64,000 nucleotides of DNA. Source: Bacillota bacterium. GTDB taxonomy: Bacteria > Bacillota > DTU025. Positions 35,648 to 64,000 of this stretch are shown here, piece by piece (within the stretch, counting starts at the first letter, position 1; the number at the start of each line of letters is the position of its first letter). The DNA is taken from the NCBI GenBank assembly GCA_050951805.1, contig JBMNJT010000001.1:1-64000 (forward strand). The letters are read 5' to 3'. Under the pieces are notes generated by a model that saw only the letters and a program-made list of their open reading frames with translations, was not told the origin of the DNA and ran no database searches. The translations under genes and the position numbers were made by a program.

Positions 35648-35667
35648 GATGTAATGCTTCTTTCTGC

Positions 35668-36546
35668 CTAAAACTCCATCCCCAGCGACAGCCTGTGGCT
35701 GTCAGGTAGGGTATTGTGGTGCTGGTAGGCGTAATCGATGTTGAAGGTCGCTGCTTCAAAGCCTGCCCCTGCAGTGAGGCATGTTCCATTCCCACCAAAA
35801 GAGCCGCCTGCGCGGAGCGCCATCTGGCGGAATCTGTACTCTGCCCCCACCTTTCCAGAAAAGCCGTTGTCCATCACGGCATCCGCCGCAACGAGCAAGT
35901 TCTCCATGGGCTCGAAGGCAACTCCAAGTCCGAATGCGCGGTCAAACGCATCCTCCGCACCACTGGAGTAGGCCACCTTGCCAAAGAGGTTCCTTCCGAC
36001 CGCGCCCACGCGGACCTTGTCATCCGCCATGGAATACAAAACTCCCATGTCAGCTGTGAAGCCTTTCCCCGAGTTTTCGGGCAGTGTCTCTTGGTAATAC
36101 TTGACCGCCGCTCCAATGCTCAGGTTCGGCATTACCGCCATACCGTAGCCTGCCATCACAGCGGTACTAGCCACACCAAATGTGCCAATCTCGTTTGCGA
36201 ATTCATCTGTTTCTTCTATCCCGGAAGCGTCGAGCCTCAGGATTCCCGCGCCAATGTGTCGTGCCACGCCTCCTAACGCGAGGTACCCTGCTGCTCCATA
36301 TTGGTTTGTATACAGCGATGTGATATCTATTCCATCAATTACGCCCAGGCCTGCCGGGTTGTAGTATATGACGGAGGCGTCATCTGCCACCGCAATATGG
36401 GCGCCGCCCATTCCAAGCGCCCGCGCCCCCATTCCAAGTCCCATCATCGCCGCCGTTCCCACCGGATCGTCCTCGGCGAATGCAGCTGCTGCGGGAATCA
36501 GGGCAATTACGAGCACGAGCGCAAGCACTGTTTTCTTGATTCGCAT
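35668..36546 (-). CDS. PorV/PorQ (FadL/UPF0164-like) outer-membrane beta-barrel, copy 1
   Basis: Signal peptide ending AFA; GMGARALGMGGA.IAVADDAS.IYYNPAGL signature; alternating beta-strand pattern; C-terminal IDYAY...HRLSLGMEF ending in Phe. Confidence 0.85.
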   Translation of the reverse strand: MRIKKTVLALVLVIALIPAAAAFAEDDPVGTAAMMGLGMGARALGMGGAHIAVADDASVIYYNPAGLGVIDGIDITSLYTNQYGAAGYLALGGVARHIGAGILRLDASGIEETDEFANEIGTFGVASTAVMAGYGMAVMPNLSIGAAVKYYQETLPENSGKGFTADMGVLYSMADDKVRVGAVGRNLFGKVAYSSGAEDAFDRAFGLGVAFEPMENLLVAADAVMDNGFSGKVGAEYRFRQMALRAGGSFGGNGTCLTAGAGFEAATFNIDYAYQHHNTLPDSHRLSLGMEF

Positions 36547-36617
36547 TTTCCGCCCTCCTTAAGGTCAAGCTAAGGAAGTCCGGGCAGTCGCTTGTGCGAC
36601 CGCCCAGACCCATGCAT

Positions 36618-39600
36618 CTATCTGCTCACAACAAGACGCCCGACCTCAGATCTCTCCTCACCGGCTATCACGACGTAGAGGTATACGCCGTTTGCCACCG
36701 GCTTGCCTGATGAATGGAGGTTCCATTCATGGGCATTCGCCGTGGCTGAAAGCTCTGCAGAGTGCACGAGGCGTCCTGCGATGTCGTAGACATATAGCGT
36801 TCCGTTAGATGCGATGTCGTAGTAGAACGTTACCAGATCAGAAGTGGGGTTCGGAGCCGCCACTACAGCGCGAGTGAGCGCGATCACCGTGAACTCCTCG
36901 CTCGTGGCATCTCCGGACGCACCTTCTGGGTCAACTGCTGTGATTCGGATTCTGTAATTGCCTCGGCGCTCAAGCTTTGAGGTATCCCAGATGTATTTAC
37001 CGGTGTTGGGCACCTCAGATGCTATGGCCTGCCAATCCCCGCCTGATGCAGGCTTGTACTCAAGGGTAATCTTGAGCGTATCTGCATCGTCATCGGGATC
37101 GAAGGCCTCCCACTCGATCATCGCCTCGCCCGTTAGGACCTGGCCTGCCGTAGGCCTTACGATCTCGACTTCCGGCGGAAGGTTGATGATCTCTATCTCG
37201 TGTTCTATCGAATCAAGCGCCTTATCGTCGTCTATGACTGTTAGTTTGACTACGAACGTGCCTGTAGAGCCGTACTTGTGCTTTGCATTAAGGCCAGCGC
37301 TGGCAGTGCCATCTCCAAACTCCCAGAAAGCCGCGACTATCTCGCCATCATCAGTAGACTCGTTGATGAATCTGACCTCCTCGCCAACACTCGCCGACGA
37401 TGGACTGAAGCTGAACGCCGCGATCGGAGCCGCGTTCCCCACCTGAATGGTCTTTGTTGTGGTTCCCGTCAGCCCGCCGTTGTCAGTAACAGTGAGCTCG
37501 ACCGTGAACTCGCCCTTATCAGCATACTGATGCTCCGGGCTCTCCTGGTCGCTTTCCGCACCGTCTCCGAACTCCCAATGCCAAGCCACGATCTCGCCGT
37601 CATCTGTCGACTCGTCGACGAACTTCACCTTGTCGCGCCGTGTGGCGGGGGACGGGGTGAAGCTGAAGTCGGCGTTCGGGGCGAGGTTTACGATGGTGAA
37701 CTCGTCCGTCACGAACTCGTGGGATGCTCCAGAAGGATCGATGGCCACAATGCGTATCTGGAAGTCATCGCCGCCGGCACCCACTTCTGGGCTGTCCCAC
37801 AGGTAACTGCCGGTATTCGGCAACTCCCGGGCAATCTCATTCCACTTCCCGCCACTACGCCTCCAATACAGGTCGATGGCGAGTGTGTCGGGATCGTCAT
37901 CTTCATCCGTGACCGTCCAGCATATCTCGTATGCCCCGTTGATCTCCTCACCAGCTTCAGGATGAGTGATTTGCGCCTCAGGTGCCATATTCACCTTTAT
38001 CTGAACTGGAACCATGACCGAAGGACAGAACGGATCGTCAGCTGATACTGTCATCTCCAGTGCATAGGTTCCCGCTGCAGCACCTGGCGAGCCGAATGTG
38101 AGCATCACTTCCTGGGTTTCACCTGACAGCAGATATCCAGTCGTTGGGTTCGGCCGCAAGACAGGACTGGATGGAACGACCTTGATGGCGAAGTTCATTG
38201 GCCCATCGCCATTGTTCCTCACTTTCATGATGCCCTGATCTTCAGTGCCGTGGAGAACGACCACGTCTATCTCCTCAGGTTCAACTTGAAGTTTAGGCAA
38301 CCACTTGACTGTGATCTTCGATTCAGCTGTCGCCTCCGAGCCGTTCTCATCCACGGCATGGAACCGAGCTGTGTAAGTCCCGACTTCTGCATACACGTGT
38401 TCAGCGTGGGTTTCATGAACCGCGTCGCTGCCGTCTCCGAAGTCCCACCAAACATCGACCACAGGAGTAGCCCCGGGAACTACGGTTGCATCGAACGCCA
38501 CCGAAAGCGGCGGCTGGCCTATTGTCGGGTCTACGCTTATCTCAGTTATGGTCGGCCCTGCTTCCAGGTGTACGGTTATGTCTACGTAGAGTGCCGAATT
38601 GAACGGATCATTTGTCGCCACTACGACGTGCTGCCTCACATCATCGCCGGGTTTGCCCAGCTCGGCAGCTTTCATCGTAATGGTTATCTCTTGAGTCTCC
38701 CCTTCGGGCACTACACCCCTTACCGGATCGACAGCTATTCCGTAACCTATTGGCATCCCCGTCTCCACTAGGTACATGGTATTGTTCTTCTGCGACATCA
38801 CCCAGAGGTTCCCGTCGGGGTTGAGCGCCAGCCCTGCGCTGGAGTACTCGTCATTGGCCGGGTGCGGAAATTGCGCTATCACTGCGCGGGATTCCACATC
38901 GATGCCATAGATCATGTCTGGTTCGGAATTGCCAGCCACCCATAGCACACCATCGGGGTGCCATGCAAGACCCGCAATGCCTACAGGGAAAGGCCAGGAT
39001 TCGATTATCTCTCCGGGGTTGTCCCAGTCAAGCCCCTTGATGTGGTAGATGATGTCCTGATTCCAACCGCCGATATAGAAGGTATCGGTGTCAGGATCGT
39101 AAGCCAGGCCTCTCTGCGACACAGCGGCCCAGGATGCATCCCTAATCCTCACTTCTGATACCCCTGTCGCAGGATTGAGCCCGTGAATGCCATTGCTCCA
39201 TCCCACGTCCACCTGCCACATGAGGCCATGATTGGAATCGTACGCCATGTCAGCCGGCCATTCACTGGTCCAGTATGTGTTTAACATGGCGCCAGTGTGG
39301 GTTCCGGACGTGGTCACTATGTGGTCATAGTTCTCGCGAGAGTCCGAAATCCACAGAGTCGACCTAACCTCTTCGTAGCCGAGGCCCCACGGGTTCTCTA
39401 TTTGAGACGGGACTCTCCACGACAGGATGACGTTGCCCGCGGCCCCTGGTTCAATAGCAGTCTCGATCTTCGCAGGATCCATCGGCAGATAGAGTCCTTC
39501 AGCATCCAGAGCATTCGGATCGGATACGCTGCCAACCCTTTGAGGCATGGCCACAACGGGCGCACTGCCTTCTCTCGCTCTTACGGTGAACTTGAGCGGT

Positions 39601-42600
39601 GCGTTCCCGCCTGCGTTACTAATGGTCACAGTCTCCGTTGCAACACCCGTCGGCACCATCGTCTTTTCTATCTCTGACGGTTCTATGCTTGCATTAGGCA
39701 GCATCTTCACTTCAACGATGAACTTTGCTTCAGCACGCCCTCCTAGCTGATCGATGACTGTGAAAACCGCTGTATAGTCACCCTCAACTTCGTAGGTGTG
39801 CACTCCATCGCGCACTGCTGCCGATTCCCCATCGCCAAAATCCCATCCATAGCTCACTATGGGGGTATCGGGCGCGGAAAATGCCGCATGGAATGCTACT
39901 TCAAGGGGCGGCTCGCCAATGAGCGGAGTTGCGCTCGCCTCAGTGATTCTTGGCGATGCAGCTACGTCAGCAGTGACTGGAACGATGATCATGGGATACT
40001 CCACGTCGTTCGTGAAGAGAACCATGTTGCTGGTGTGCGTGCCCAGCTTCAGTCTGCTGGCATCCACTGTTGCCTTGATATCGATTGAGCCTCCAGCAGG
40101 CACCTTGCCCCTTGCCGGCTCCCATGTGAACCATTGGCCATCGATCGGGCCAAGCCCCGTTTCCACCAGGTACATGGTGACATCGTCTTGCGACGCAACC
40201 CACAGGTTTCCGTTCTTGTCGAACTCACACCCAGCAGCAGAGTAGTAGCCACCCATGGGATGCGGGAACTGTGCAACTATTGAATGGCTCACAGGGTTCA
40301 CGAAGTAGATCATGTCAGGTTCGCCATTAGCGGTCACTGCCAAAATGCCGGCGACCGGATGATAGGCGAGTCCTGCAATGCCTACAGGAAGGGACCATCC
40401 ATCTATGACCTCACCAGGATTGTCCCAGCTTTCTCCCTTGATGTTGTAGATTATATCTTTGTTCCAGCCACCTATGTAGAATGTGTCGTTGTCGGGATTG
40501 TAAGCTAGTCCTCGCTGCGACTCCCATGTCCATTCGCCCTCGGCAATCGATCCGGCAACCTCGCCTGTCTGCGGGTTCAGCTTGTAGATGCCGTTATCCC
40601 CGCCGACACTCACTTGCCAAATATGCCTGCCGTCGAAGGCCATATCAGCTCCCCAGCCCGGTGTCCACGTAGTGGTCCAGCTGATGCCAGTAAACACGCC
40701 ATCCGACGTAAGCACGTAGTCTACACTCGGTTCGACTTCGATATCGCCAACAACGAGGGAGCCCGAGTTGTGATCGACTCCCACACCCCATACTCCAACC
40801 ATGGGCGCAGGGGCCCTCCAGCTCTTCAGCACTGAGCCGGCCGCTTCAGGCAGCCACGACGAACGCTCAGGGTTGGGGTGCGATGCGAAGATTCCCTTGG
40901 CGTTAAGTGCGTCTGGATCATGTATGCTCTCTTTCGACATTAGCCTTTGCGGAGTCGGCACCCTGTTCGGCAATTCCTCGCAACCGAACTCCAGCGTACC
41001 CGGACCGGCATTGCTCAGGATCAATGTCTTCGTCGTCTTCTGCCCCGAAGCTACGTTGAAATCGAGCTGAGTCGGATGCCAGCTGGCAGACGGAGGATCT
41101 TGCACATTTACTTTGACGGATTCTGTCGTCTCATAGCCGTCATTATCCACTGCTGTAAATGTGGCAGTGTAGACTCCATCTCGGGTGTAGGCATGTTCTG
41201 CGAACACATCGTGCACAGGTTCACTGCCGTCGCCAAAGGTCCAGTATTTGTCGACGATAGTGCCGTCAGGGTCGTGTGCCGCCCCCAAGAACCGGAAGAC
41301 TGTCCCCGCAGGTCCCTGTTTCGGATCAACGCTGCACGCAGTTATCACCGGAGCACTGTTTGGTATGACATCAACCCTTACCGGAACCACAATCTCCGGA
41401 CGGCGTATGTCGTTTGTTTCAAGGATTATCGATCCTCTGAGAACTCCGCCATCAGTCGGCTTGAGATCAAAGAAGACATCCAGGTCGATGCTATCTCCTG
41501 GCTCAAGCTCTGCTTGGAGCGGGCTGACAGAGAGCCACGAATACGGCCAGATCCTGATAGCAAGTTCGTTTTTCACATAACCGGCCGTGTCGTACAGAAT
41601 GGCGATCCCATCAGAACCGTCAGCATTCTCAATGCCGATGGTGCCTCTATCCAACGCCAACGATCCCATATCCATATCGAGATACTGGTAGAGCACGGAG
41701 CCATCGGGATACAGAATTGCTTGGAAGGTCAAGGACCCCATCCTCATGAAACGAGGCAATCCCTTCCACTCGATGATGAATCTGTCATTGGCTTCATCGT
41801 AGTACTGGAATACGCCCCCATCTGCTGGAACCATCGTCGGCCGGAGGTAATCCCAATACACAGCCAACAATGCATTGGGCAGCTCCGGAGATGGGATTGG
41901 ACCGTTAGACACCGATGTAGACATCGGCTCAAAGGTGAGGAACCCATCGGAGGTTACCGTGACCTTGTCATGAGCCTCTCCGTAGAATGGGAAAGACCAT
42001 GGCAGGTCAACTTCGACGCAGTGGTGGTTCTTTGTCATCGGAAGCTTGTCACCGACGTCACTGATTTCCACCCAATCGAACTCCGGGCCATCAGCGTCGT
42101 CGGAATCTATCCACATGTAGCCGAACTTGTCGGGGCCACCGGCGCCCTCAGGCGCAATCTCTAGTCCTGCCCCGTCGGCCTTCTCTTCTACGACGACTTT
42201 CACGTCGAGAATCAGGGTGTCATCGCCGACGTTCGTCACAGTCAGTTTCTCTTCGCGATTGCGATGAGCCCTTATCGTCTGCGCAAACCGCGGCGGATTT
42301 ACATCTGCGGCAGGCAGATTAGCCACCACTATGTCAACAGTGGCGCTATCTGCAAGGCCGTCGTCGTCCGTAACGGTCAGACTGGCCGTCCATTCGCCAT
42401 CCACGACATACGTGTGCACCGGGGTCAACGTGCCCGTCACAGGCTCGCTGCCGTCGCCGAAGTCCCACACTATATCGACGATCTGGCCGTCGCGATCCTT
42501 TGCCGTTGCCACAAACTCCACCGTTAGCGGCGCCTTGCCGGCCCAGGGTTTCGCGGACACAGACTGAATCACAGGCGGAATAATGGACTTGACGGACATG

Positions 42601-45743: not shown

Positions 45744-45779
45744 AAAAGCGAAGCCTATGCAATTGCGATAGAGCCTCGC
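45744..45779 (-). terminator. Rho-independent terminator after barrel copy 2
   Basis: Minus strand GCGAGGC...GCTTCGC followed by TTTTCTCTTT; homologous to the terminator at 56422-56461. Confidence 0.65.
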
Positions 45780-45806
45780 ATATCTCTCTATGTGCGTCGC
45801 GTTTGG

Positions 45807-46685: not shown

Positions 46686-46756
46686 TTTCCGCCCTCCTTA
46701 AGGTCAAGCTAAGGAAGTCTGGGCAGTCGCACGCGCGACCACCCAGACCCATGCAT

Positions 46757-52700: not shown

Positions 52701-55700
52701 TGGAGGTCTTCGTGTCTCCGTAGAACGGGAAGTCGAACGGAAGATCGACAACCCTGGAATCGTCGCCTGTCAGGGGAAGTTTCGTGCCGATTTCGCCGAT
52801 TTCAACCCAATCGAAAACGGGTCCGCCCGATTCGTCTGAATCGCGCCATATGTATCCGAACCCATCCGGTCCGCCAACGCCGAGCGTACTAAGCGCCCCG
52901 TCCTCTGTCGGGACTCCGCCCGTAAACGCCTCTGCGCTGAAAATCAACGCGGCCTCCCCCATATTCGTCACGGTAAGGGTCTCGGTCTTCTGCCGATGGG
53001 CCCGCACAGCCTGATGGAATGTCTGCGGGTCCACGCTCGCCTCCGGCAGATCTGCCACAACAATAGTGACGCTTTCTTCGGCGATGAGGCCATCATCATC
53101 GGTCACGGTGAACGTGGCCGTATACTCCCCGTCCGCCTCGTAGGTATGAACTGGCGCGAAAACGCCCGTTACGGGGTGACTGCCATCGCCAAAATCCCAT
53201 TCGATAGCGGCTATTTCTCCATCGGCATCTTCCGCAACCGCGGAAAACTCGACCGCAAGCGGCGCACTGCCTATCCGCGGATCAGCCGAAATCGATCTTA
53301 TCACAGGCGGGATGATGGATTTGGCAAACATGAATGTATCGACATCGACCTGCGGGTTCACAGGATCGTTGCTGAGGATTTTGATCGTTGCCTTCCAAGT
53401 CCCCTGTGGCAAGTTGTGGGCTGCAAAGGCTGCTGTGAGCGTGTCGGATTCGCCTGGCGCGACTGTTCCCGCAGTCTTGTCCAACACGACCCATCCCGGC
53501 ACGAATAGCACGCCGAGATTGTCATGGACATAATTCTCGTCGTAAGCCACCTGAAGCCCTATAGTGCCAGTTGCGTTCTCGATTCCGATTGTAGCCTCGT
53601 CGAGACGCGTCCCCATCATCTTGTAGAGGTATGTGATGTTTCCCCCCGGAGTCAGCGTGGCCTGGAACGTGTAAGGTCCCCCTCTGCCATAGCGCTGAAC
53701 GTCCTGATACTGCACGACGAATTTCTGGTCGTCGCCGTAATAGAAGACCTTGCCATCGCCTTTCTGCGGTTCAAGGTCATCCCAGAAGATTGCGATCAGG
53801 TCATTTGGCTCTCTGGTATCCGGTACGGAATGATTGTTGTACGCGGTGCCATTGTCGCCAAATGTCAAGTATCCGTTGGAGGAAATCCGTATCGAATCCT
53901 TGATATCCCCGTAGAAGGGGAACTCGAACGGGAGGTTGACTACGACGCTGTCCTCTCCCTCGAGGGTTACCCCGGTTCCAACCTCGGAAATCTCGAACCA
54001 CTCGGGCATGACGACCCCTGCCTCATCGCTGTCTGTCCAGAAGTAGCCATGCTCATCAGGGCCTCCGGATCCCAGCTTTCCTATGGGAATGGCTGTTCCG
54101 GACGTGTCTACCATGCCTATAAGCTGGAGTTCGGCCGTATAATCGAGGCTCCCCAGCCCATCATTACTGATGGTGATCGCCTTTTCACAGGTCTCTCCCC
54201 ATTCGAGCCTGGTATGGATCTCAGTGGGCTCCACTCCGATCACAGACGCAAAGAAGACGTGAATCTGCACGGCAGCGCTGGCGTCTATGCCAGCGGTATT
54301 CACTACGTGGAATGAGGCGTCATAAAACCCCTCTTCCTCGTAAGTATGTACTGCATCCCATTCGTGCACGGTCTCGCTGCCATCACCGAAATCCCACCAC
54401 ATATCGAGGATTTCGCCTTCGGGCGTCTCGGCCATCGCGCTGAAACTGACCTCAAGAGGCGGCGGACCCCACGTGGGAGTTGCCTCTATCGAAGTTATTA
54501 TCGGCGCTCTCTGGCCCGCGATGGCATTTGCCAAGTTGAGCCGACCCCCTGTGAGCACCTTCCCCTCATACTGCGGGAAGACGTCGACACTACCTAAGAT
54601 CATATCCTTGATAGTGACCGTATCATCCCCCATGCCAGCGGTTCTATAGAGGGGCACATGCGGGTACATGCTCCGCAAGAGCGCAGCGGCGCCAGATACG
54701 TGCGGCGTGGCCATCGAAGTGCCGTAGAAGAAGGCGTAAGCCTCGCTGGGCTCTGCCTCGGGTGGATCAGGCGGAACGGTGGACAAAATGTATCCGCCGG
54801 GAGCGAAGAGGTCGACAGTCCTCTCGCCATAGCACGTGCTCCACCAGCCGGCGTAATTGCATGGCATCTCATTTTGCATCATGGCGGCTACTGAAATGAT
54901 GTTCGCCGAATCATAGCTCGATGGATAGTGCGGATGGATATCCGTGTTGTCACCGGAGTTGCCCGCCGCGCATACAACGAGCATGCCCGATGCTTCTATG
55001 GCGTCCTTGAGCACCTGTTGGTATGGTCCCCCGCCCCAACTGCAGCTCGCTATCTGCGCGCCCTTGTCTGCAGCATACTGCAGGGCGAGGATGGCGTCGG
55101 ATGTATAGCCGCCCCCGGGGCCAATGAACTTTAGGGGCATAATCCTGACGTTCCAGTTGATCCCAGTCACACCCATACTATTGTCTGACTGGGCACCAAT
55201 CGTTCCGGCGCAGTGAGTTCCGTGGTTGTCGTTGAGATATCCATATTCGTCACGTTCATCGGGGTCAAACACACTGTTGTCATTATTGGCAAAATCCCAA
55301 CCCCAGAAATCGTCAACATAGCCGTTGCCATCATCGTCCACTCCGGGTTCCCCGTTCATTTCCGACTCGTTGACCCAAATGTTGGCGATAAGGTCGGGGT
55401 GTTGGATGTAGCAGCCGCTGTCAATGACGGCCACAATGATCTCATCTGTGCCTGTATGGACGGCCCAAGCTTCGGGGGCATCGATGTCCGCATTATTGAC
55501 GGGATCGCCCGACATCTCGGGGTCCTTGTACTGGCAGTCCTCATTATGGAGGCCCCACATCCTCTCGAAATAGGTATCGTTTGGGACAATAGGGGCACCT
55601 GTGTGAGCTTGGTCTTTGTAGCAAATGTAGTCTCGTTCGGCATAAAGAATCCCCGGAGCATTGCTCAGCCTTGATATTGCCGATTCAGGGCTGACCCTCT

Positions 55701-56007
55701 CGGGAAGTTCCACGATTCCGAATTTTGCACCGCTTGGAAATGTCGCGGTAGCTTTGAAGTCAGCAACTCGATACATTGAGTATCCTAGCCGCTCTATCGA
55801 ATTGGTAGCAGCATTTGTAGTAATCGTATCTGAAAAACGCACTATTACCTTGTTGGGATGATAGGTATCAGGACCGGGCTGCCATCCACCACAAAGCCCT
55901 GCCTGAGACCATACATCCGAGGCGCCTTCAACAGCAGCGCAAGGTATGACCAATAACAGGATCAGTGCAGCAATAAACATCGACCTGTTTCTCCGACTAT
56001 CAGCCAT
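46757..56007 (-). pseudogene. Giant S8 subtilase/PKD/CTD protein, copy 2, split by two +1 frameshifts (~3082 aa if repaired; may be sequencing error)
   Basis: ORFs 51052-56007, 50634-51317 and 46757-50848 are collinear with the paralogs. One extra base at about 51217-51219 (GAAAGG vs GAAGG in paralogs) and one at about 50850-50852 (GGG run). Catalytic VIDSG, HGTHCAG and GTSMATPHV are intact. Confidence 0.85.
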
Positions 56008-56329: not shown

Positions 56330-56421
56330 AGATTCGATGAAGAATGACAATATAGCGCAAACACAGCATGACGTAGCTGTCAGTGTTTGTCACTGCCGTT
56401 TTATTCACCCATCTGCTTGAG

Positions 56422-56461
56422 AAAAAAAGGCGAGGCTCATGCTATTGCAACAGAGCCTCGC
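56422..56461 (-). terminator. Rho-independent terminator after barrel copy 3
   Basis: Minus strand GCGAGGCTC-N14-GAGCCTCGC, then C and TTTTTTT. Confidence 0.8.
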
Positions 56462-56488
56462 ATATCTCTCTATGTACGTCGCGTTTGG

Positions 56489-57367
56489 CTAGAACTTCAT
56501 TCCCAGCGACAGCCTGTGGCTGTCTGGCAAGGTACTATGGTGCTGGTATGCATAATCGATGTTGAAAGTAGCTACCCCAAACCCTGCTCCTGCAGTGAGG
56601 CATGTTCCATTCCCGCCAAAAGAGCCACCTGCGCGGAGCGCCATCTGGCGGAATCTGTACTCTGCCCCCACCTTCCCGGAAAAACCGTTGTCCATCACGG
56701 CATCCGCCGCAACGAGCAAGTTCTCCATGGGCTCGAAGGCAACTCCAAGTCCGAATGCGCGGTCGAAGGCATCCTCCGCACCACTGGAGTAGGCCACCTT
56801 GCCGAAGAGGTTCCTTCCGACCGCGCCCACGCGGATCTTGTCATCCGCCATGGAATACAAAACTCCCATGTCAGCCGTGAAGCCTTTCCCCGAGTTTTCG
56901 GGCAGTGTCTCTTGGTAGTACTTGACCGCCGCACCGACGCTCAGGTTCGGCATTACCGTCATGCCGTAGCCTGCCATCACAGCGGTACTAGCCACACCAA
57001 ATGTACCAATCTCGTTTGCGAATTCATCTGTTTCTTCTATCCCGGAAGCGTCGAGCCTCAGGATTCCCGCGCCGATGTGTCGTGCCACGCCTCCTAACGC
57101 GAGGTACCCTGCTGCTCCATATTGGTTTGTATACAGCGATGTGATATCTATTCCATCAATTACGCCCAGGCCTGCCGGGTTGTAGTATATGACGGAGGCG
57201 TCATCTGCCACCGCAATATGGGCTCCGCCCATTCCAAGCGCCCGCGCCCCCATGCCAAGTCCCATCATCGCCGCCGTTCCCACCGGATCGTCCTCGGCGA
57301 ATGCAGCTGCTGCGGGAATCAGGGCAATTACGAGCACGAGCGCAAGCACTGTTTTCTTGATTCGCAT
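56489..57367 (-). CDS. PorV/PorQ-like outer-membrane beta-barrel, copy 3
   Basis: 6-7 residues differ from copies 1 and 2; same signature and terminal Phe. Confidence 0.85.
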   Translation of the reverse strand: MRIKKTVLALVLVIALIPAAAAFAEDDPVGTAAMMGLGMGARALGMGGAHIAVADDASVIYYNPAGLGVIDGIDITSLYTNQYGAAGYLALGGVARHIGAGILRLDASGIEETDEFANEIGTFGVASTAVMAGYGMTVMPNLSVGAAVKYYQETLPENSGKGFTADMGVLYSMADDKIRVGAVGRNLFGKVAYSSGAEDAFDRAFGLGVAFEPMENLLVAADAVMDNGFSGKVGAEYRFRQMALRAGGSFGGNGTCLTAGAGFGVATFNIDYAYQHHSTLPDSHRLSLGMKF

Positions 57368-57442
57368 TTTCCGCCCTCCTTAAGGTCGTGCAAATCTGTG
57401 AAGTCCGGGCAGTCGCTTGTGCGACCGCCCAGACCTATGCAT

Positions 57443-60400
57443 CTATCTGCTCACAACAAGACGCCCGACCTCAGATCTCTCTTCACCGGCTATCACGACG
57501 TAGAGGTATACGCCGTTTGCCACCGGCTTGCCTGATGAATGGAGGTTCCATTCATGGGCATGCGCCGTGGCTGAAAGCTCTGCAGAGTGCACGAGGCGTC
57601 CTGCGATGTCGTATACGTAGAGCGTTCCGTTTGCTGCGATGTCGTAGTAGAACGTTACTACATCAGAAGTCGGGTTCGGAGCAGCCACTACAGTGCGAGT
57701 GAGTGCAATTACCGTGAACTCCTCGCTTATGGCCTCTCCGGATGCGCCTTCTGGGTCGACTGCTGTGATTCGGATCTCATACTTGCCTCCGCGCTCCAGC
57801 TTGGAGGTATCCCAGACGTATTTACCGGTGTTGGGCACCTCAGATGCTATGGCCTGCCAATCCCCGCCTGATGCAGGCTTGTATTCAAGAGTGATCTTGA
57901 GTTTGTCCGCATCATCGTCTGGATCAACAGCCTCCCACTCGATCATCGCCTCGCCCGTTAAGACCTGGCCTGCTGTGGGCGTTATGATCTCAACTTCCGG
58001 CGGGAGGTTGATGATCTCTATGGTCTCTTCAGCTGTGCCCGCAAGGTCACCGTCGTCAGTAACGGTGAGCTTCACCGTGAATACGCCCTTCTCGGCGTAC
58101 TTGTGCTCTGGGCTCTGCTCCGAGCTTTCAGCTCCATCGCCGAACTCCCAATGCCAGGCCACGATCTCGCCGTCATCGATGGACTCGTCGGTGAACTTGA
58201 CGATTGTCTCAACCGTGGGTGAGGCTGGAGTGAAGCTGAACGCCGCCTGCGGCGGAGCATTGACTATCTCTATCTCGTGCGTTATCGAGCTAGCTACATT
58301 GTCGTCATCTATCACTGTCAGCTTAACCGCGAACGTGCCTGTAGAGCTGTATACGTGCTCAGGGCTCCACTGGTCGCTTGTTGACCCATCACCAAACTGC
58401 CATAGGCAGGTGACGATCTCGCCGTCATCAGTGGACTCATTGGTGAACTTCACGGCTTCGCCGGTTCTAGCAGGCGAAGTGAAGCTGAACGCTGCAATCG
58501 GCGCCGCGTTCCTCACCTCGATGGTCTTTGTTGCAGTTCCCGTGAGCCCGCCGTTGTCGGTGACGGTTAGCGTGATCTCGAACTCGCCCTTCTGGGCATA
58601 CTGGTGCTCTGGGTCCTGTGCATCGCTCGTAGTCTCGTCTCCGAACTCCCAGTGCCACGCCACGATCCGGCCGTCATCAGTCGACTTGTCGACGAACTTC
58701 ACCTTGTCGCGCCGTGTGGCAGGGGATGGAGTGAAGTCAAAGTCGGCGGTTGGAGCGTTATTGATGATAGTGAACTCTTCCGTCACGAACTCATGGAACG
58801 CACCTGCGGGGTCGGTGGCCCTTGCTCTTACGCGGAAAGTGTTGCCTGCCTCGCCTACTTCGATGGTGTTCCACTCGAAGGAGCCGGTGTTGGCAAGCCC
58901 TCTCCCGAGCTCATGCCACGTCTCGCCGTCGCGAGTCCAGGCAAGGTCGATCAGGAGGTCATCTGCATCATCATCAGGATCCGTGGCCGTCCATTCGATC
59001 TCGGTCACGCCGTGCAGCTCATCTTCGCCCTCAGGCGTCGTGATTGCAACTGCTGGAGGAGCGTTGAGCTTGAGCGTCACTGGAATGGCCGCAAACGGAC
59101 GGTATGGGTCATTCGCCGACACGTACAGGTAGAGCGAGTATGTGCCGTATGCGGCGTCGGGAGATCCAAGCGTCAGAATAACATCCTGGCTTCCCCCGGG
59201 CACAAGGTATCCCGATGTCGGATTGACCTTGATAATCGATCCGACTGGCGCGAAACCTATTGCTAAGCCATCCTCGATGTACGGGGCGTTGTAGACTACC
59301 TGCAGGCCGTCTGTGCCTGTGGCGTTTTCAATGCCCACTGTGGCGCTGGTAAGCTCGCCGACCATATCGAGGTACTGGAATACGATCGTGCCGTTAGGAT
59401 ACAAGATCGCCTGGAACGTATAGGATACCGATTCTTGCAACCACTTAGCCACTCCCTGATACTCCACGATGAAGCGGCCCGCTTCCTGGTCGTGGTAGTA
59501 GTAGACATCGCCCGCCGTCCCTGGATCGAGGTCATCCCAGAAGACCGCAATCAGGTCGTTGGGGTCGGATGGATCAGGTATGGGAGTGTTCGTCCACTTG
59601 CTGCTTGCCGTTCCGAACGTCAGGTATCCGTTGGAGCAGATGCGAACCTTCGTCTTCACATCTCCGTAGAACGGGAACGCGAACGGCAGATTCACATCTA
59701 CGATCGACTCGTCAGTCAACGTCAGCCTGGTTCCGACATCACTGATCTCGAACCAGTCGAACTCGGGACCGCCCGCATTGTTGCTGTCGATCCAGATGTA
59801 TCCGAACTGGTCGGGTCCGCCGGCGCCTGCACCCGCATACCCCTTGGGCTCGGAAGCATAGTCGCCCTTTACAGGCCCAGAAGCAACGTATTCCTTCCAC
59901 TCGGGGCTTCCGGCGAAGCTCGGCGCAACCGCTATCTCGAAGTTCATCGGTGCAACGCCGGTGTTGCTGACTGTCAAGACGGTCTGCTCTTCTTCTCCTA
60001 CTGGGACGATCTCATCGAACTCCTCAGGTTCAACCCCTAGCACAGGTAGCCACTTGACTGTCACTGTCAGCTCAGCAGTTGCCTCGACCTCATTCTCGTC
60101 AATTACGTGGAAGACTGCTTCGTATACTCCGAGGTCAGTGTAGATATGCTCGGCTCTAGCTTCGTGGACTGGGTCGCTGCCATCGCCGAAGTCCCACCAC
60201 ATGTCGACTATGTCGGTCGCGCCAGCCTCAACTGTAGCATCGAATGCCACGCGAAGCGGCGGCTCGCCGATAGTCGGGGTCGCGGTCGCCTCGACAATGG
60301 TCGGGCCAGCCTCGATGTGGACGATCAGATCCACATAGAGGAAGGTATTCTCAGGATCGTTAGTTGCTATCTCAAGGTACTTCCTTATCTCATCCCCTGG

Positions 60401-63400
60401 CTTGCCGAGATGCTCGGCATCAATCGTAACCTCAAGTTCCGCGGTTTCGCCTAGTGCGACTGTGCCGCGCTCGGGGTCTACACTTATTCCTACTGCCAGA
60501 GGCATTTCCGTGTTGATCAGGTACATGTAGCGGTTGTCCTGAGATGACGCCCACAGGTTGCCGTTGCTATCGAGTGCAAGCCCAGCTCCGGCGTAATCTC
60601 CGCCATACGGATGCAGGAACTGGTACACGACTTCGAGAGCATCCAGGTCAAGCCCGAAGACCATGTCAGGAGCACCATTATTCGTCACCCACAGGATCCC
60701 GTCTGGGTGCCACGCGAGTCCCGAGATGCCTACTGGGAACGAGTAGGCGGCAATTACTGAGCCGGGGCTGCCATGGCTAGGCCCGTAGATGTGGTAGATG
60801 ATATCCTCGTTCCATCCGCCGATGTAGAAGGTGTCAGTATCGGCATCATAGGCAAGGCCTCGCTGAGATGTGTCTGTCCAAGGCCCGCTGGTGATCTTCA
60901 TGACCACTGCGCCTGTTTCAGGGTCAAGTCCGTATATGCCGTTGTCGCCACCGACATTGACCTGCCACATCAGATTTCGGTTGCTATCGTACGCCATGTC
61001 GCCGGGCCATGACCCTGCCCACGGCGTGCTGAAGACCGTTCCGGTGTGGACGCCTTCCGGCGTGACGAGGTGATCCTTCTTCACCAATGGATCTGTGATC
61101 CATACGTTGCCGTCGAAGCCAACACCCCAAGGCAGATCTATCTGCGAGGGCACTTGCCACGAAGTGATCACATCGCCCACTGCGCCCGGCTCGATGGAGG
61201 CTGCAATTCTTTCGACGAGCTCGGGAGCGATCGAAGCATATAGGCCTTCAGCTGTTCTCGCGTTCTCATCTAGCACAATGCCTATGCGCTCAGGCATTGC
61301 AACCACTGGAGCACTTCCGCCCTTTACCTTCACTTCGAACTCGAGCTCGGCGTTGCCCTCCACGTTGCCCAAAGTTACGGTCTCCGTGGCACTGCCACGA
61401 GGAGGCAAGGTCACTTCGATCGTCTCAGGCTCGCAGGTTGCGCGAGGCAGCCACTTTACTTCGATCTCGAAGCTAGCCTCGTCGCTTGCGCCCATCTGAT
61501 CCGTCACTGAGAACGTGGCAGTGTACAAGCCCGCTGCGGTGTAGACATGCGTCACGTCGAGCTCGCTTGAGGTTGTTCCATCTCCGAAGTCCCAGCCGTA
61601 GCTTACAACTGGAATCTCAGGTGCCGTGAATGCGGCGTGGAACGCCACTTCAAGTGGAGGCTCGCCGAACACAGGCTCTGCGCTTGCCTCGGTTATCACA
61701 GGCGGCGCAGCCACTGTGGCCGTGACCGGAACTATGATCATCGGGTTTTCGATGTCATTGGTAAAGAGGGTCACATACTCTTCGTAGCTGCCGGGCTTGA
61801 GCTCTGAAGCATCCACCTTGACCGTGATGTTGACTAACCCTCCCGCCAGAACGGATCCAGCGTCAGGTTCCCAACTGAGCCAGCCGGAGCTTATTGGTCC
61901 AAAGCCGGTCTCGATCAGGTACATCTGCTCATCGTTCATCGACGCGGCCCACAGGTTTCCGCATGGCGCGAATTCACATCCAGCGCCTGTGTAATCGCCG
62001 CCGCTTCCGGGATGAGCAAACTCCAAGAGCACAGCATGGCTATCAGGATCAACGAAGTATATCTTGTCCGGCGATCCATTGTTCGTCACTGCCAGCACGT
62101 TGGCTCCTGGATGATAGGCGAGTCCTGCAATCCCTACGCCAAATGTCCACTGCTCGATTACTGCGCCGGGATTATCCCAACTCTCGCCCTTGATCTTGTA
62201 TATGATGTCTTCGTTCCATCCGCCGATGTAGAAGGTGTCATCGTTGGCATTGTAGGCCAGGCCTCGTTGAGAAATGCCGGCCCACGGCAAACTGCTGATG
62301 GATCCGAGGACCTGTCCTGTTTCAGGATCCAGCTTGTAGATCCCATTGTCCCCGCCGACGTTGACTTGCCAGATGTACTCGCCATCGAATGCCATGTCGC
62401 CGGCCCATGAGCCGCCGAAGTTGGCCGTCCAGCTTGTGCCAGTATGCTGGCCTTCTGCTGTGACCACATGGTCGACGGTTGGGGTAACATCGGGATCGGA
62501 TATCACTAGATTGCCGGTGTCGAGAATCACTCCAACACCCCAAGGAAGACTGATCTGTGAAGGCGCTGGCCAGCTTGTAATAACAGAACCGACGCCCTCG
62601 GGCTTCCAAGGATAGCTTTCCACTGCAGCAGTGGGCTCGTAGATGCCCTCTGCTGTCATAGCATTAAGATCCTTGATGCCATCAGGAGTGACCAGCCTCT
62701 TCGGGAACTGGACCCTATTGGGAAGCTCCTCCGCACCGAAGATCAGCGTCCCTGTGCCTATGTTGCTCAGGGTCATGATGCCTTCGGCTGTCTGTCCGCC
62801 TCCCAAGGTGAAGCTGAACTGCTTAGGATTCCAGCTAGCAGATGCCGGTTCGCGAACGGTCACGGTTACCGATTGAGTAGCCGGGTAACCATCATTGTCG
62901 ACTGCGGTGAATGTCGCGACAAACTTGCCTTCACGCGAGTACTTGTGTGTTGCCACGAACTCGTGAACAGGCACGCTGCCGTCGCCGAAATCCCACCACT
63001 TGTCGGCTATGTGGCCGTCTGCGTCACGTGCGGCCGCAACGAACTGGAACTGGGTGGTGATCGGGCCGATATCGGGGTTGACAGAGCAAGCGGTTATGCT
63101 CGGAGGATTGTTCGGGATCACTTCGATGTGAACCGGAACGATCGTCCGCGGCTTGCGGATATCATTAGTGTCGAGCACAACTGCGCCGTCCAACATGCCT
63201 GATCCGACCATGCCCAAGTCGAACGTCACGTCCAGATCGATGCTCTCGCCGGGTTCAAGCGTTGCCTGCTCAGGCGCAACTTCGAGCCATTGGTAAGGCT
63301 TGAACCTGATAGCAAGTTCATCATGCATATAGCCCATCGTATTGTGGAGCACCCCAAGGCCATCTGTGCCGTCGGAGTTTTCGATGCCGATGGTGCCCTT

Positions 63401-64000
63401 GTCCACATTGGCAGGAGCATACTGCATCTCGAGGTACTGATAGACTATCGTGCCATCGGGATAGAGTATGGCCTCGAAGGTGTATTCGCCTCCGTCGCCG
63501 GACCAAGAATAACGAGGCGCCTTGTTGAACTGCACGATAAATCGGTCGTTTGCTTCATCGTGGTAGTAGTAGGCGCCGGCTCCGGCTGGCCCCTTACTAA
63601 TCTGCAGGTCATCCCAGAAGACTGCCAGCAGATCGTTGGGCAGACCCGTATTGGGTATCGCCTTGTTCGAATAGGTTCCGTACGAGGGGAACGCTCCGAA
63701 GTTGAGCCAGCCATTGGCGTTTACGTTTATCTCGCCCCATGTCTGTCCATAGAACGGGAACTCCCATGGTAGGTCGATAGTCGTCGTCTCATCATCCTTC
63801 AGCGTTGCCAGCTTCGTGCCTATTACGCTGATCTCCACCCAGTCGAACACAGGGCCTCCGGGTTCATCTGAGTCTCGCCACAGATAACCGAATTCGTCAG
63901 GACCACCCGCGCCGAGCGGATCCAACGCCTCATCTACTGTAGGAACTCCGGATGTGTAGGCCTCTGCTGTAAACGTCAGCGCAGCCTCTCCGGTATTCGT
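57443..64000 (-). CDS. Giant PKD/NIDO-like/propeller/CTD protein, copy 3 (5' part, presumably including the S8 domain, lies beyond the window)
   Basis: The frame stays open to the window edge and is collinear with copies 1 and 2 from the second GGPD.FGY.W module to the same C-terminal domain. Confidence 0.88.
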   Translation of the reverse strand, partial: TNTGEAALTFTAEAYTSGVPTVDEALDPLGAGGPDEFGYLWRDSDEPGGPVFDWVEISVIGTKLATLKDDETTTIDLPWEFPFYGQTWGEINVNANGWLNFGAFPSYGTYSNKAIPNTGLPNDLLAVFWDDLQISKGPAGAGAYYYHDEANDRFIVQFNKAPRYSWSGDGGEYTFEAILYPDGTIVYQYLEMQYAPANVDKGTIGIENSDGTDGLGVLHNTMGYMHDELAIRFKPYQWLEVAPEQATLEPGESIDLDVTFDLGMVGSGMLDGAVVLDTNDIRKPRTIVPVHIEVIPNNPPSITACSVNPDIGPITTQFQFVAAARDADGHIADKWWDFGDGSVPVHEFVATHKYSREGKFVATFTAVDNDGYPATQSVTVTVREPASASWNPKQFSFTLGGGQTAEGIMTLSNIGTGTLIFGAEELPNRVQFPKRLVTPDGIKDLNAMTAEGIYEPTAAVESYPWKPEGVGSVITSWPAPSQISLPWGVGVILDTGNLVISDPDVTPTVDHVVTAEGQHTGTSWTANFGGSWAGDMAFDGEYIWQVNVGGDNGIYKLDPETGQVLGSISSLPWAGISQRGLAYNANDDTFYIGGWNEDIIYKIKGESWDNPGAVIEQWTFGVGIAGLAYHPGANVLAVTNNGSPDKIYFVDPDSHAVLLEFAHPGSGGDYTGAGCEFAPCGNLWAASMNDEQMYLIETGFGPISSGWLSWEPDAGSVLAGGLVNITVKVDASELKPGSYEEYVTLFTNDIENPMIIVPVTATVAAPPVITEASAEPVFGEPPLEVAFHAAFTAPEIPVVSYGWDFGDGTTSSELDVTHVYTAAGLYTATFSVTDQMGASDEASFEIEVKWLPRATCEPETIEVTLPPRGSATETVTLGNVEGNAELEFEVKVKGGSAPVVAMPERIGIVLDENARTAEGLYASIAPELVERIAASIEPGAVGDVITSWQVPSQIDLPWGVGFDGNVWITDPLVKKDHLVTPEGVHTGTVFSTPWAGSWPGDMAYDSNRNLMWQVNVGGDNGIYGLDPETGAVVMKITSGPWTDTSQRGLAYDADTDTFYIGGWNEDIIYHIYGPSHGSPGSVIAAYSFPVGISGLAWHPDGILWVTNNGAPDMVFGLDLDALEVVYQFLHPYGGDYAGAGLALDSNGNLWASSQDNRYMYLINTEMPLAVGISVDPERGTVALGETAELEVTIDAEHLGKPGDEIRKYLEIATNDPENTFLYVDLIVHIEAGPTIVEATATPTIGEPPLRVAFDATVEAGATDIVDMWWDFGDGSDPVHEARAEHIYTDLGVYEAVFHVIDENEVEATAELTVTVKWLPVLGVEPEEFDEIVPVGEEEQTVLTVSNTGVAPMNFEIAVAPSFAGSPEWKEYVASGPVKGDYASEPKGYAGAGAGGPDQFGYIWIDSNNAGGPEFDWFEISDVGTRLTLTDESIVDVNLPFAFPFYGDVKTKVRICSNGYLTFGTASSKWTNTPIPDPSDPNDLIAVFWDDLDPGTAGDVYYYHDQEAGRFIVEYQGVAKWLQESVSYTFQAILYPNGTIVFQYLDMVGELTSATVGIENATGTDGLQVVYNAPYIEDGLAIGFAPVGSIIKVNPTSGYLVPGGSQDVILTLGSPDAAYGTYSLYLYVSANDPYRPFAAIPVTLKLNAPPAVAITTPEGEDELHGVTEIEWTATDPDDDADDLLIDLAWTRDGETWHELGRGLANTGSFEWNTIEVGEAGNTFRVRARATDPAGAFHEFVTEEFTIINNAPTADFDFTPSPATRRDKVKFVDKSTDDGRIVAWHWEFGDETTSDAQDPEHQYAQKGEFEITLTVTDNGGLTGTATKTIEVRNAAPIAAFSFTSPARTGEAVKFTNESTDDGEIVTCLWQFGDGSTSDQWSPEHVYSSTGTFAVKLTVIDDDNVASSITHEIEIVNAPPQAAFSFTPASPTVETIVKFTDESIDDGEIVAWHWEFGDGAESSEQSPEHKYAEKGVFTVKLTVTDDGDLAGTAEETIEIINLPPEVEIITPTAGQVLTGEAMIEWEAVDPDDDADKLKITLEYKPASGGDWQAIASEVPNTGKYVWDTSKLERGGKYEIRITAVDPEGASGEAISEEFTVIALTRTVVAAPNPTSDVVTFYYDIAANGTLYVYDIAGRLVHSAELSATAHAHEWNLHSSGKPVANGVYLYVVIAGEERSEVGRLVVSR

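Follow-up and report, generated by a model that had tools for sequence, protein, structure and literature searches.

Tailed giant proteases and PorV-like barrels as putative cargo-plus-carrier units of a reduced type 9-like export system in a diderm member of the Bacillota

[quoted passage not shown] The question is raised by the first 64,000 nucleotides of contig JBMNJT010000001.1 of an uncultured Bacillota bacterium (assembly GCA_050951805.1; GTDB lineage DTU025), which we call the window below and in which an earlier note had described three such cassettes. The passages that we cite from previous work place type 9 secretion only in the Bacteroidota or the FCB superphylum (PMC11205867, PMC10994853, PMC12618676), and we found no paper describing such a reduced T9SS-like system with per-cargo barrels. 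A stripped-down type 9-like system nevertheless seems to exist in this diderm member of the Bacillota, and we consider it probable, with some reservation, that the cassettes are cargo-plus-carrier units of a reduced T9SS-like system for outer-membrane export and display.

Three tandem protease-barrel cassettes and their host

Marker profiles identify the host as a diderm member of the Bacillota and not of the FCB group, as its gene content had already suggested to the earlier reader. It encodes two Spo0A proteins (TIGR02875; 296 and 288 bits, cut-off 200), a profile passed only by B. subtilis among 14 controls, and a BamA homolog on contig 2 that stays below its cut-off (TIGR03303; 184.5 bits, cut-off 297). 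All three genes share a contig of 1.56 Mb with three cassettes, and the closest public loci carry the labels Bacillota, Firmicutes or Clostridia.

The cassettes of the window lie in tandem on the minus strand and share one order, i.e., a giant subtilase with a type-A-like tail, a 292-aa barrel and a hairpin. Giant 1 (36618-45344; 2908 aa as an open reading frame, with the ATG at 45260 as the likely start) combines a signal peptide, a Peptidase_S8 domain with D/H/S motifs, 7 PKD domains along with other Ig-like ones, and a C-terminal sorting-type domain formed by its last 95 aa (36621-36905), which is supported by TIGR04183, the alignment and the predicted barrel interface. Giant 2 (46757-56007, tail at 46760-47044) is a single gene, homologous to giant 3 end to end, that is spread over three frames (open reading frames 46757-50848 and 51052-56007), with the reading frame shifting near 51217 and again near 50850; it may be a pseudogene or an assembly error. 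Giant 3 (57443-64000 within the window, tail at 57446-57730) continues to C1:67096 beyond the window and totals 3217 aa. The barrel genes (35668-36546, 45807-46685 and 56489-57367; 292 aa each) start 71, 71 and 75 bp after the giant's stop codon in cassettes 1, 2 and 3, in agreement with the spacing of around 70 bp and the shared tail noticed before. All three barrels begin with a signal peptide (MRIKK...AAFA, followed by EDD), contain the N-terminal plug motif GMGARALGMGGA...YYNPAGL, end in Phe, as had likewise been described, and are mutually 98% identical.

The claim that a hairpin or terminator ends each cassette stands for the hairpin in all three cases (z of -2.5 to -3.2 by folding) and for the U run in two of them. 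GC-rich, terminator-like stems with a U run follow barrel 2 (45738-45789, minus strand) and barrel 3 (56420-56471, minus strand), but the GC-rich hairpin between convergent genes behind barrel 1 (35621-35657; -30.6 kcal/mol, z -3.2) has no minus-strand U run. A simple terminator scan listed a plus-strand terminator-like site at 35636-35657, 3' of barrel 1, and missed the minus-strand cassette terminators that folding recovered. The neighbourhood comprises an ABC transporter set as well as ROK and HTH regulators.

Profile and model evidence points to the 292-aa protein being a FadL-like outer-membrane barrel of the PorV/PorQ family with PorV as its nearest solved structure, much as the earlier note had proposed. 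All eight barrels of the genome exceed the cut-off of 90 bits for this family (NF033709; 100.1-117.8 bits, with barrel 1 at 109.7). Barrel 1 misses both equivalog cut-offs and scores between the models for the two barrels known from P. gingivalis, PorV (NF033710; 36.3 bits, cut-off 250) and PorQ (NF033711; 71.3 bits, cut-off 220). Its AF2 model (pLDDT 89.6, pTM 0.84) has PorV as the best Foldseek match among 350,542 PDB chains (8gl6_F, TMq 0.74), followed by 6h3i_F (TMq 0.73) and then by FadL/TodX. The PorP/SprF profile TIGR03519 has no match in this genome and is equally silent in every control genome.

The tails look like T9SS type-A-like sorting domains at the extreme C-terminus of predicted Sec-exported proteins, which fits the assignment to T9SS type A or FlgD-Ig domains that had been made by eye. 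The tail of giant 1 exceeds the TIGR04183 cut-off (33.0 bits, cut-off 23; residues 2830-2906 of 2908) and stays below those of the Pfam families Por_Secre_tail (21.1 bits, cut-off 27) and FlgD_ig (18.9 bits, cut-off 27), while the cargo tail on contig 7 passes Por_Secre_tail at 29.1 bits. Genome-wide, TIGR04183 has eight matches, seven of them over the cut-off; the eighth tail reaches 22.3 bits in the genome search and 26.0 bits (cut-off 23) in a scan of the complete protein. Giant 1 has no match to the type B tail profile TIGR04131 at an E-value of 0.01 or better.

Pairing and shared history of tail and barrel

With HMMs derived from this lineage, a search of 20,365 open reading frames yields exactly eight tails, eight barrels and one big outer-membrane protein. 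Since all eight barrels and all eight tails of the genome are adjacent on the same strand (8/8, with no solitary barrel), their pairing is not due to chance, and the one-to-one relation of cargo and barrel proposed from the window extends to cassettes spread over three contigs. It is largely kept in relatives: across 11 genomes of the family, 23/29 tails are paired with a barrel and 4/29 have no adjacent barrel, three of the latter belonging to an orphan protein of ca. 980 aa.

An interface between the two partners, which the earlier note had suggested to look for by co-folding, is indeed predicted. Co-folding of barrel residues 26-292 with the 95-aa tail gave an ipSAE of 0.92 in 3/3 runs as opposed to 0.05 for the best of three controls, with a contact agreement of at least 96% and a partner pLDDT of at least 85, though the predictor may already know the solved complex of PorV with a CTD (8GL6). 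The mark applied to these co-folds is reached by 58/80 solved complexes and by 2/110 mismatched pairs. Alignment and co-fold further agree in that the conserved motifs of the tail are those located at the predicted barrel interface.

Tail and barrel have also been homogenised jointly in the three cassettes of the window. A block at 35665-37722 (minus strand), composed of the barrel, the spacer and the last ca. 190-370 codons of the giant, shares 93% DNA identity with 45804-47861 and 56486-58021. Identity at silent sites is high among the barrels (0.88-0.91) and over the terminal 190 codons of the giants (0.81-0.94) as compared to 0.37-0.56 over the remaining giant sequence, where silent sites outside the homogenised block are saturated. 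Over 20 pairs, the identity matrices of tails and barrels correlate with r 0.87, a value reached in 0/5000 permutations, although simple linkage would also be expected to produce such co-variation as well as joint gene conversion.

A SprA-like protein and the search for other type 9 components

The big outer-membrane protein is a single copy of 1418 aa encoded outside the window at C2:620842-625098, directly after cassette 6 (an eighth-type cassette). It scores only 36.8-37.3 bits against the SprA profile TIGR04189 (cut-off 200) in a local match of 63 residues (E 4.9e-10), a profile that detects full SprA in 7/7 FCB genomes. A profile of its own family reaches the SprA chain 6h3i_A in the PDB with an E-value of 1.7e-4, and an hhalign comparison of 14 family members with six full-length SprA proteins gave a probability of 97.2% (E 3.7e-11, 481 columns) for residues 42-560 against SprA residues 172-760, i.e., for the N-terminal third only. 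By profile alignment, the first ca. 520 residues of this protein are thus homologous to SprA. An AF2 model confined to residues 219-1418 (pTM 0.46) has at least 25 long C-terminal strands, and SprA chains take the first three places among its Foldseek matches, with a TMq of only 0.28. The protein also contains a 7-bladed propeller insert. Other searches were less telling: phmmer with the 1418-aa protein found nothing useful in the PDB, where SprA was reached by the family profile alone, the ESM Atlas returned unnamed clusters only, and the VIA-align matches of the 1200-residue model were filled by the propeller domain (Z of ca. 27), with none informative on the barrel.

The earlier statement that the window holds no sprA is correct, and the relative lies elsewhere in the genome. 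The idea of a minimal two-gene export system therefore fits less well than the alternative raised alongside it, a divergent relative of the T9SS. The SprA-like gene is flanked by MatE, phosphomannomutase and unnamed open reading frames, and a family scan found no T9SS families among its neighbours or those of the window cassettes.

Whether this protein belongs to the same system is the point on which the strongest rival turns, namely that the barrels are anchors only, that another route takes the cargo across the outer membrane and that the SprA-like protein serves an unrelated function. Barrels of the PorV and PorP families that hold tailed proteins are described in the cited passages of previous work (PMC12365241, PMC11205867), and such a reading would also accommodate a SprA score below the cut-off and the fact that 7/8 cassettes are far from the SprA-like gene. 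It is countered by gene order in other genomes: the SprA-like gene is single-copy and directly 3' of a protease-barrel pair in eight relatives, and two Bipolaricaulota genomes have the same order of protease, barrel and SprA-like gene, with full-length HMM E-values of 3.5e-191 and 3.4e-173. The gene moreover co-occurs with barrels in 17/19 of the relatives that have it, kin that do not count as independent, and our searches, as far as secretion is concerned directed at T9SS families, identified no alternative outer-membrane route for 300-kDa proteins. The association is looser in the f4 relatives, where barrel and SprA-like gene are ca. 41 kb apart, and in the related genome G005, where no barrel adjoins either gene. 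In 73 loci of non-Bacillota type, the SprA-like HMM found no homolog up to 6 kb away from the barrels and only propeller matches in two Poribacteria loci. On this evidence we consider barrels serving purely as anchors to be unlikely, and cargo-plus-carrier units that share one pore to be the most likely reading of the two-gene cassettes.

PorU, for which a genome-wide search had been proposed, is absent from the profile matches of this genome, G001 and G003, while all 7/7 FCB controls have it over the cut-off; in the two Bipolaricaulota genomes, no PorU exceeds the cut-off either. The profile for LpxC has no match in this genome, and none of 12/12 genomes of the family has LpxA over the cut-off. 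The searches for PorK/L/M/N are of a different kind: TIGR03513, TIGR03517, PF12081 and TIGR03525 have no match here, but none exceeds its cut-off in seven FCB genomes with SprA and PorU, and TIGR03523 is silent in this genome as well as in its 14 standard controls. The earlier statement that porKLMN are missing hence holds for the window, whereas the genome-wide nulls are uninformative and "motor-less" is unproven because FCB genomes with SprA and PorU come out equally empty or below cut-off. In FCB loci, genes for proteins of 1018-1256 aa upstream of barrels had been candidates for porU but were rejected as such; Peptidase_C25 was found in 1/34 of the upstream open reading frames scanned for it (L028, 1443 aa), and 0/23 of those scanned for PorU reach that profile.

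A proposed mechanism and its relation to known systems

We propose that the giant subtilase would be exported by Sec via its signal peptide and that its C-terminal beta-sandwich tail would be bound by the extracellular loops and the N-terminal segment of the barrel encoded just downstream. The cargo would then cross the outer membrane via the single half-size SprA homolog (1418 aa, contig 2). Since neither a PorU sortase nor a lipid A pathway was found, the barrel would probably keep the tail as a permanent anchor, one per cargo, and not be recycled like the PorV shuttle of Bacteroidota. That the cargo passes through the 1418-aa protein and that the tail is left uncleaved are steps that we infer.

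The T9SS translocon core of F. johnsoniae is described as SprA together with PorV and a substrate bearing a type A CTD in the cited passages (PDB 6H3I, 8GL6; PMC10994853). Its counterparts here would be Sec cargo with a TIGR04183-type beta-sandwich tail, a PorV-family barrel of the 14-strand type predicted to bind the tail via its loops, and a giant outer-membrane protein that resembles SprA in its N-terminal ca. 520 residues. Unlike SprA, this pore relative has ca. 60% of the length (about 2300-2450 aa for the SprA/Sov reference of TIGR04189), contains the propeller insert and falls below the family cut-off. Further differences are one barrel per cargo instead of a single shared PorV, the PorU and lipid A pathway that were not found, and a Spo0A-bearing member of the Bacillota instead of an FCB host.

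A lasting hold of a PorV/PorQ-family barrel on a tailed protein at the cell surface, as proposed here, has a parallel in P. gingivalis, though the partners in our cassettes are cargo proteases and not processing or LPS-delivery factors. In the PorU-PorV and PorZ-PorQ attachment pairs, tails are stably retained. The Attachment Complexes of this organism are described as comprising PorQ, PorU, PorV and PorZ (PMC12365241).

In linking every cargo gene to a barrel gene, the cassettes instead recall type B CTD cargo, whose tails are bound to PorP/SprF (PMC11205867) and which, according to the cited passages, uses cognate, adjacently encoded PorP/SprF shuttles (PMC12618676, PMC11205867), whereas a single PorV serves every type A tail (PMC12618676). 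There the barrel sets both secretion and final location; here, the tail is type A-like and the barrel is of the PorV and apparently not of the PorP family. The Bipolaricaulota cassette shares the order of protease, barrel and half-size SprA as well as a big protein whose family membership extends over the full length, but the Bacillota host carries sporulation regulator genes and its cargo-barrel pair is present eight times, with the largest cargo measuring 3217 aa and only one unit beside the pore gene.

Strict 1:1 pairing, a terminator for each cassette and dispersal over three contigs would also suit autonomous two-gene export, in which each barrel would pass or insert its own partner in a two-partner- or autotransporter-like manner without any shared pore. 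Yet a SprA homolog is present and conserved, and passage of a 300-kDa multidomain protein through the modelled barrel is improbable, as this is small, of FadL/PorV type, plugged at its N-terminus and devoid of POTRA or Omp85 features; we rate this reading as quite improbable. The least plausible reading makes the barrels FadL-like channels that would take up hydrophobic peptides or further products of the protease, with a generic Ig-like domain as tail. The shared barrel fold with N-terminal plug, the structural closeness of FadL, TodX and TbuX (TMq 0.59-0.66) and weak Pfam matches below cut-off (Toluene_X, 17.1 bits, cut-off 29.7; UPF0164) would suggest this reading, but it is at odds with PorV/PorQ as family and PorV as top structural match, tail-barrel co-variation, a homogenised block that ends well inside the giant, conserved motifs at the predicted interface and the coupling of every barrel copy to a tailed protein.

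Building on cargo-plus-carrier units that share one pore, we tentatively entertain a broader possibility, namely that the T9SS core of SprA-type pore, PorV-type carrier and tailed cargo might be older and more widespread than the Bacteroidota/FCB machine and work in lineages on the Terrabacteria side (Bacillota, Bipolaricaulota) with neither sortase nor LPS nor a PorLMKN rotary apparatus. Each barrel could then be a carrier for one cargo that is used only once, departing from the pore together with that cargo and remaining as its anchor, and for this reason one barrel per cargo would be kept and tail and barrel be homogenised together.

If true, such a system would be a natural minimal version that could tell which parts of a 20-component machine are needed for passage and which for anchoring, and it would test the need of a motor for the release of carrier and cargo. 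It would also add a new character to the debate on outer membranes and their machines across Firmicutes and other Terrabacteria. The organism is recurrent in metagenomes of anaerobic digesters and sludge; on the practical side, the cassettes encode large predicted surface proteases of a digester and sludge organism, where protein hydrolysis matters.

A GAF-PAS sigma-54 activator is encoded upstream of cassette 4. Sigma-54 promoters were also considered for the giants and rejected: the -24/-12 consensus matched 40 times where 35 matches were expected, and no convincing match precedes a giant. Contigs from RNA libraries (four runs from four studies) cover barrel and tail, and two of them span the junction between the stop codon of the giant and the start of the barrel, which we take as a hint that the cassettes are expressed; such contigs cover 12, 6 and 8 of the 30 bins of the stretch in X16, X17 and X20, respectively.

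Giant proteases and their barrel partners in the window

From position 35668 to the end of the window, the minus strand carries three cassettes arranged head-to-tail, each with a giant subtilase gene followed by a gene for a 292-aa protein after a gap of 71, 71, or 75 bp. The open reading frames bear out the triplication that the earlier note had described and add detail on the individual copies. Giant 1 (2908 aa) comprises a signal peptide, a Peptidase_S8 domain (170 bits) in which the Asp/His/Ser motifs are recognisable, seven copies of the PKD domain, more Ig-like domains, and a C-terminal tail, and giant 3 (3217 aa) extends past the window to position 67096 of contig 1. Giant 2 shows homology to giant 3 over its entire length and is split across three consecutive frames (shifts near 51217 and 50850), reflecting either decay or an assembly error. 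All three 292-aa proteins (98% mutual identity) carry a signal peptide with the end AFA|EDD, a segment GMGARALGMGGA...YYNPAGL, and a terminal Phe. A GC-rich stem and then a U run lie 3' of barrels 2 and 3, and barrel 1 is followed by a strong hairpin common to the convergent ABC-transporter gene, in line with the hairpin or terminator earlier noted at each cassette end.

The surroundings of cassette 1 are ordinary, with an HTH-cupin regulator and an ABC importer of four genes (TOBE-domain ATPase, two permeases, and solute-binding protein) both converging on it at 31240-35604. Between 36001 and 64000, G+C content is 0.54-0.59 over most of the giants compared to ca. 0.50-0.52 in flanking genes and likewise in the 44001-46000 bin at the junction of cassettes 1 and 2. 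Beyond the window, a DegT/DnrJ-type sugar aminotransferase is encoded between cassettes 3 and 4 (C1:67625-68863; L102:10625-11863) and a GAF-PAS sigma-54 activator upstream of cassette 4 (C1:76021-77838; L002:12021-13838); the regions upstream of the window's giants yielded no convincing -24/-12 sites.

The earlier assignment of the tail to a type A-like sorting domain and of the 292-aa protein to PorV-like barrels was confirmed at the level of families. The tail of giant 1 scores 33.0 bits against NCBIfam TIGR04183 (type A sorting domain; cut-off 23) and stays below the Pfam cut-offs for Por_Secre_tail and FlgD_ig. Similarly, the 292-aa protein passes the PorV/PorQ family model NF033709 (109.7 bits; cut-off 90) and remains far under the equivalog cut-offs for PorV (36 versus 250 bits) and PorQ (71 versus 220 bits). 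Its structural model, built on an 80-row alignment (pLDDT 89.6, pTM 0.84), folds into a barrel that has a short plug segment at its N-terminus, and its best solved match is PorV of the substrate-bound translocon (8gl6_F, TMq 0.74; 6h3i_F, 0.73).

Pairing of tail and barrel

The one-to-one pairing of cargo and barrel that the earlier note had suggested holds across the whole genome, of which the assembly (2.75 Mb in 8 contigs, 97% complete) has the window as the start of contig 1. It contains eight PorV-family matches, all over cut-off, and eight tail matches, and every tail (8/8) is encoded just upstream of a same-strand barrel, the pairs being spread over contig 1 (four), contig 2 (three), and contig 7 (one). 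HMMs built from the lineage's own sequences (E <= 1; 20,365 ORFs) likewise recovered exactly eight tails, eight barrels, and a single copy of a large SprA-like protein. A Peptidase_S8 domain is present in seven of the eight cargoes, the eighth being located at a contig end.

Tails and barrels split into two matching types, type II being the pair beside the SprA-like protein, and their identity matrices are correlated over 20 pairs (r 0.87, reached by none of 5000 permutations), though such co-variation could arise from linkage alone. The window's cassettes share a 1.5-2 kb block (93% DNA identity) made up of the giant's final 190-370 codons, the spacer, and the barrel. Silent-site identity is 0.81-0.94 within it versus 0.37-0.56 over the rest of these genes, which indicates homogenisation of the whole block as a unit.

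Co-folding of barrel and tail predicted an interface, with a score of 0.92 in three of three runs versus 0.05 for the best of three controls, contact agreement of at least 96%, and partner pLDDT of at least 85; 58/80 solved complexes and 2/110 mismatched pairs attain that mark. The contacts involve the conserved motifs APNP, YVYDIAGRLV, KPVANGVY, and RLVVSR of the tail and the mature N-terminus and loops of the barrel. Because PorV with a tail is already a solved complex (8GL6), the predicted interface speaks for likeness to that complex and is not proof of binding.

A SprA-like protein and its host

The earlier note had seen no sprA in the window. In the window's own genome, the SprA model gave only one local match, of 63 residues (36.8 bits; cut-off 200), in a 1423-aa open frame directly after cassette 6 (C2:620842-625098; L001:8843-13099). 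It recovered full-length SprA in 7/7 FCB genomes and, in two Bipolaricaulota genomes, a local match of this kind within open frames of 1464 aa and 1328 aa. The encoded single-copy protein (1418 aa) has a signal peptide, a C-terminal Phe, and no Pfam family; its named homologues are all "hypothetical protein", and the majority of the 24 are unnamed. Among PDB sequences, a 14-member family profile matched sensor-kinase beta-propellers (4a2l, E 2.5e-10) and SprA (6h3i_A, E 1.7e-4). Against a profile of six complete SprA sequences from control genomes, profile-profile comparison gave a probability of 97.2% (E 3.7e-11, 481 columns) and a colinear alignment of residues 42-560 with SprA 172-760, by which the N-terminal third is homologous to SprA. 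A model covering only residues 219-1418 (pLDDT 79.2, pTM 0.46) has a 7-bladed propeller (3va6_B match, Z 26.9) and then at least 25 long strands, and its top three Foldseek matches are SprA chains (E about 1e-12, TMq just 0.28). We read the protein as a half-size SprA homologue with a putative closed pore. Its propeller is inserted ahead of the C-terminal strands, and this key component lies beyond the window. Second frames of 1158-1241 aa in FCB genomes with full SprA (G041:C2:153241, G043:C23:206644, G044:C1:489311, G045:C61:12785) match the SprA model only at positions ca. 601-690, the segment that marks the half-size proteins.

PorU had no match in the genome and only weak tail-like matches in genomes G001 and G003, and the same kind of search scored over cut-off in 7/7 FCB genomes. 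The PorK/L/M models gave no match, with nothing over cut-off in seven FCB genomes carrying SprA and PorU either, and the GldN (PorN) model gave none, with empty standard controls as well; these negatives are therefore weightless, and we do not claim a motor-less system as a finding. PorP matched neither this genome nor any control.

The organism is a diderm Firmicute-type bacterium without a detected lipid A pathway and not a member of the FCB group, as judged from Spo0A, BamA, the LpxC and LpxA searches, and its nearest loci. Two full Spo0A genes (TIGR02875; C2:1378780-1379550 and C8:237826-238629) pass the equivalog cut-off in 2.75 Mb, as does B. subtilis alone of 14 control genomes, and the closest public loci belong to MAGs labelled Bacillota, Firmicutes, or Clostridia, as expected from the non-Bacteroidota appearance first noted. 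BamA matched at 184.5 bits, under its equivalog cut-off; LpxC had no match in this genome (controls positive), and LpxA exceeded its cut-off in 0/12 family genomes. A single contig of 1.56 Mb carries BamA, one of the Spo0A copies, three cassettes, and the SprA-like protein, so that their combination is no binning artefact. These Lpx negatives, in a genome with BamA and eight outer-membrane barrels, suggest an outer membrane without lipid A.

The window's stretch occurs in metagenomes (digesters, bioreactors, and sludge; 14 studies) and in six RNA libraries. RNA-library contigs from four runs cover barrel and tail, two of them bridging the spacer, though such contigs give no strand or single-transcript information and DNA carry-over is possible. 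One 1155-nt contig (run X17) joins window position 46705 to 36575 with 12 other letters between, so that a copy resembling barrel 2 is linked to a tail resembling that of giant 1, and probably reflects another strain's cassette arrangement or repeat recombination.

Putative export route and distribution

In the proposed route, the protease is first exported by Sec. By homology with the F. johnsoniae translocon and precedents from P. gingivalis and type B cargo, the cognate barrel would then capture its tail, and the genome's one SprA-like protein would let the cargo pass; the protease may afterwards stay anchored non-covalently on its barrel, since neither sortase nor lipid A synthesis was found. 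Substrates of the F. johnsoniae translocon bind carrier loops inside the pore, and it is the release of carrier and substrate together that needs energy (PMC10994853); P. gingivalis has barrel-held tailed proteins, in what PMC12365241 names Attachment Complexes, and type B cargo is bound to PorP/SprF (PMC11205867; PMC12618676). Less likely is an anchor-only role of the barrel, for which P. gingivalis offers a precedent. The cassette is also less likely an autonomous two-gene exporter, as its strict pairing would allow, given the SprA-like protein in the same genome. A FadL-like uptake channel fits poorly with FadL, TodX, and TbuX ranking behind PorV among the barrel's solved-chain matches.

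Capture by a cognate barrel would set this system apart from Bacteroidota, where, in the account of PMC12618676, a single PorV recognises all type A tails and linked dedicated shuttles serve type B cargo only; here, type-A-like tails have dedicated PorV-family partners. In the literature searched, we found no T9SS-like genes described in Bacillota or Limnochordia, and the reviews and abstracts consulted place T9SS in Bacteroidota or the FCB group.

PorV-family barrels occur in all 11 further genomes of the family to which the window belongs (f1) and, with the window's own genome counted, in 23/41 relatives. The SprA-like protein is present as a single copy in 19 of these 41; it occurs in 9/11 of the other f1 genomes, in 1/1 of f2 and 7/7 of f4 (two families of the same order as f1), and in one more distant genome. 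It directly follows a tailed S8 protease of ca. 1290-1384 aa and a ca. 297-aa barrel in eight relatives, and ca. 41 kb separates it from the protease-barrel pair in f4 genomes. Tail and barrel genes are also adjacent in other genomes: among 29 tails in the 11 other family genomes, 23 have a barrel just downstream, two lie at a contig end, and four have none, and 56 of 77 genes directly upstream of PorV-family barrels (80 public loci, many phyla) end in a T9SS-tail-like domain, with TIGR04183 over cut-off in 21. Two Bipolaricaulota genomes show the same order of tailed protein, barrel, and SprA-like protein, the latter with full-length HMM matches.

An orphan tailed protein of ca. 980 aa, with no adjacent barrel and no counterpart in the window's genome, is encoded in relatives G001 (C146; L103:657-3632), G011 (C1; L104:3454-6387), and G004 (C19; L105:693-3620). 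Locus L006 is labelled Pseudomonadota and probably comes from a mis-binned or mislabelled MAG; its products include a giant cargo with PKD domains, a type I barrel sharing 62% identity with barrel 1, and a homologue (1371 aa) of the SprA-like protein. Its pore gene is adjoined by this type I and not a type II barrel. Many FCB-group loci (L026, L038, L043, L045, L049, L050, L055, L056, L067, L081, and others, at ca. 2300-6000) carry a 1018-1256-aa gene before the PorV-family barrel whose product has a PorZ/PorU-like tail; its identity as PorU was ruled out (no Pfam match at E 1e-9, no NCBIfam match at E 1e-12), and the gene 3' of the barrel often encodes a KKMxLxK-type tail too. Poribacteria loci L021, L025, L030, L032, L033, L041, L059, and L073 instead have a gene of ca. 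655 aa without a T9SS-like tail before the barrel, and the one scanned, from L021, combines DUF6785 and DUF6784.
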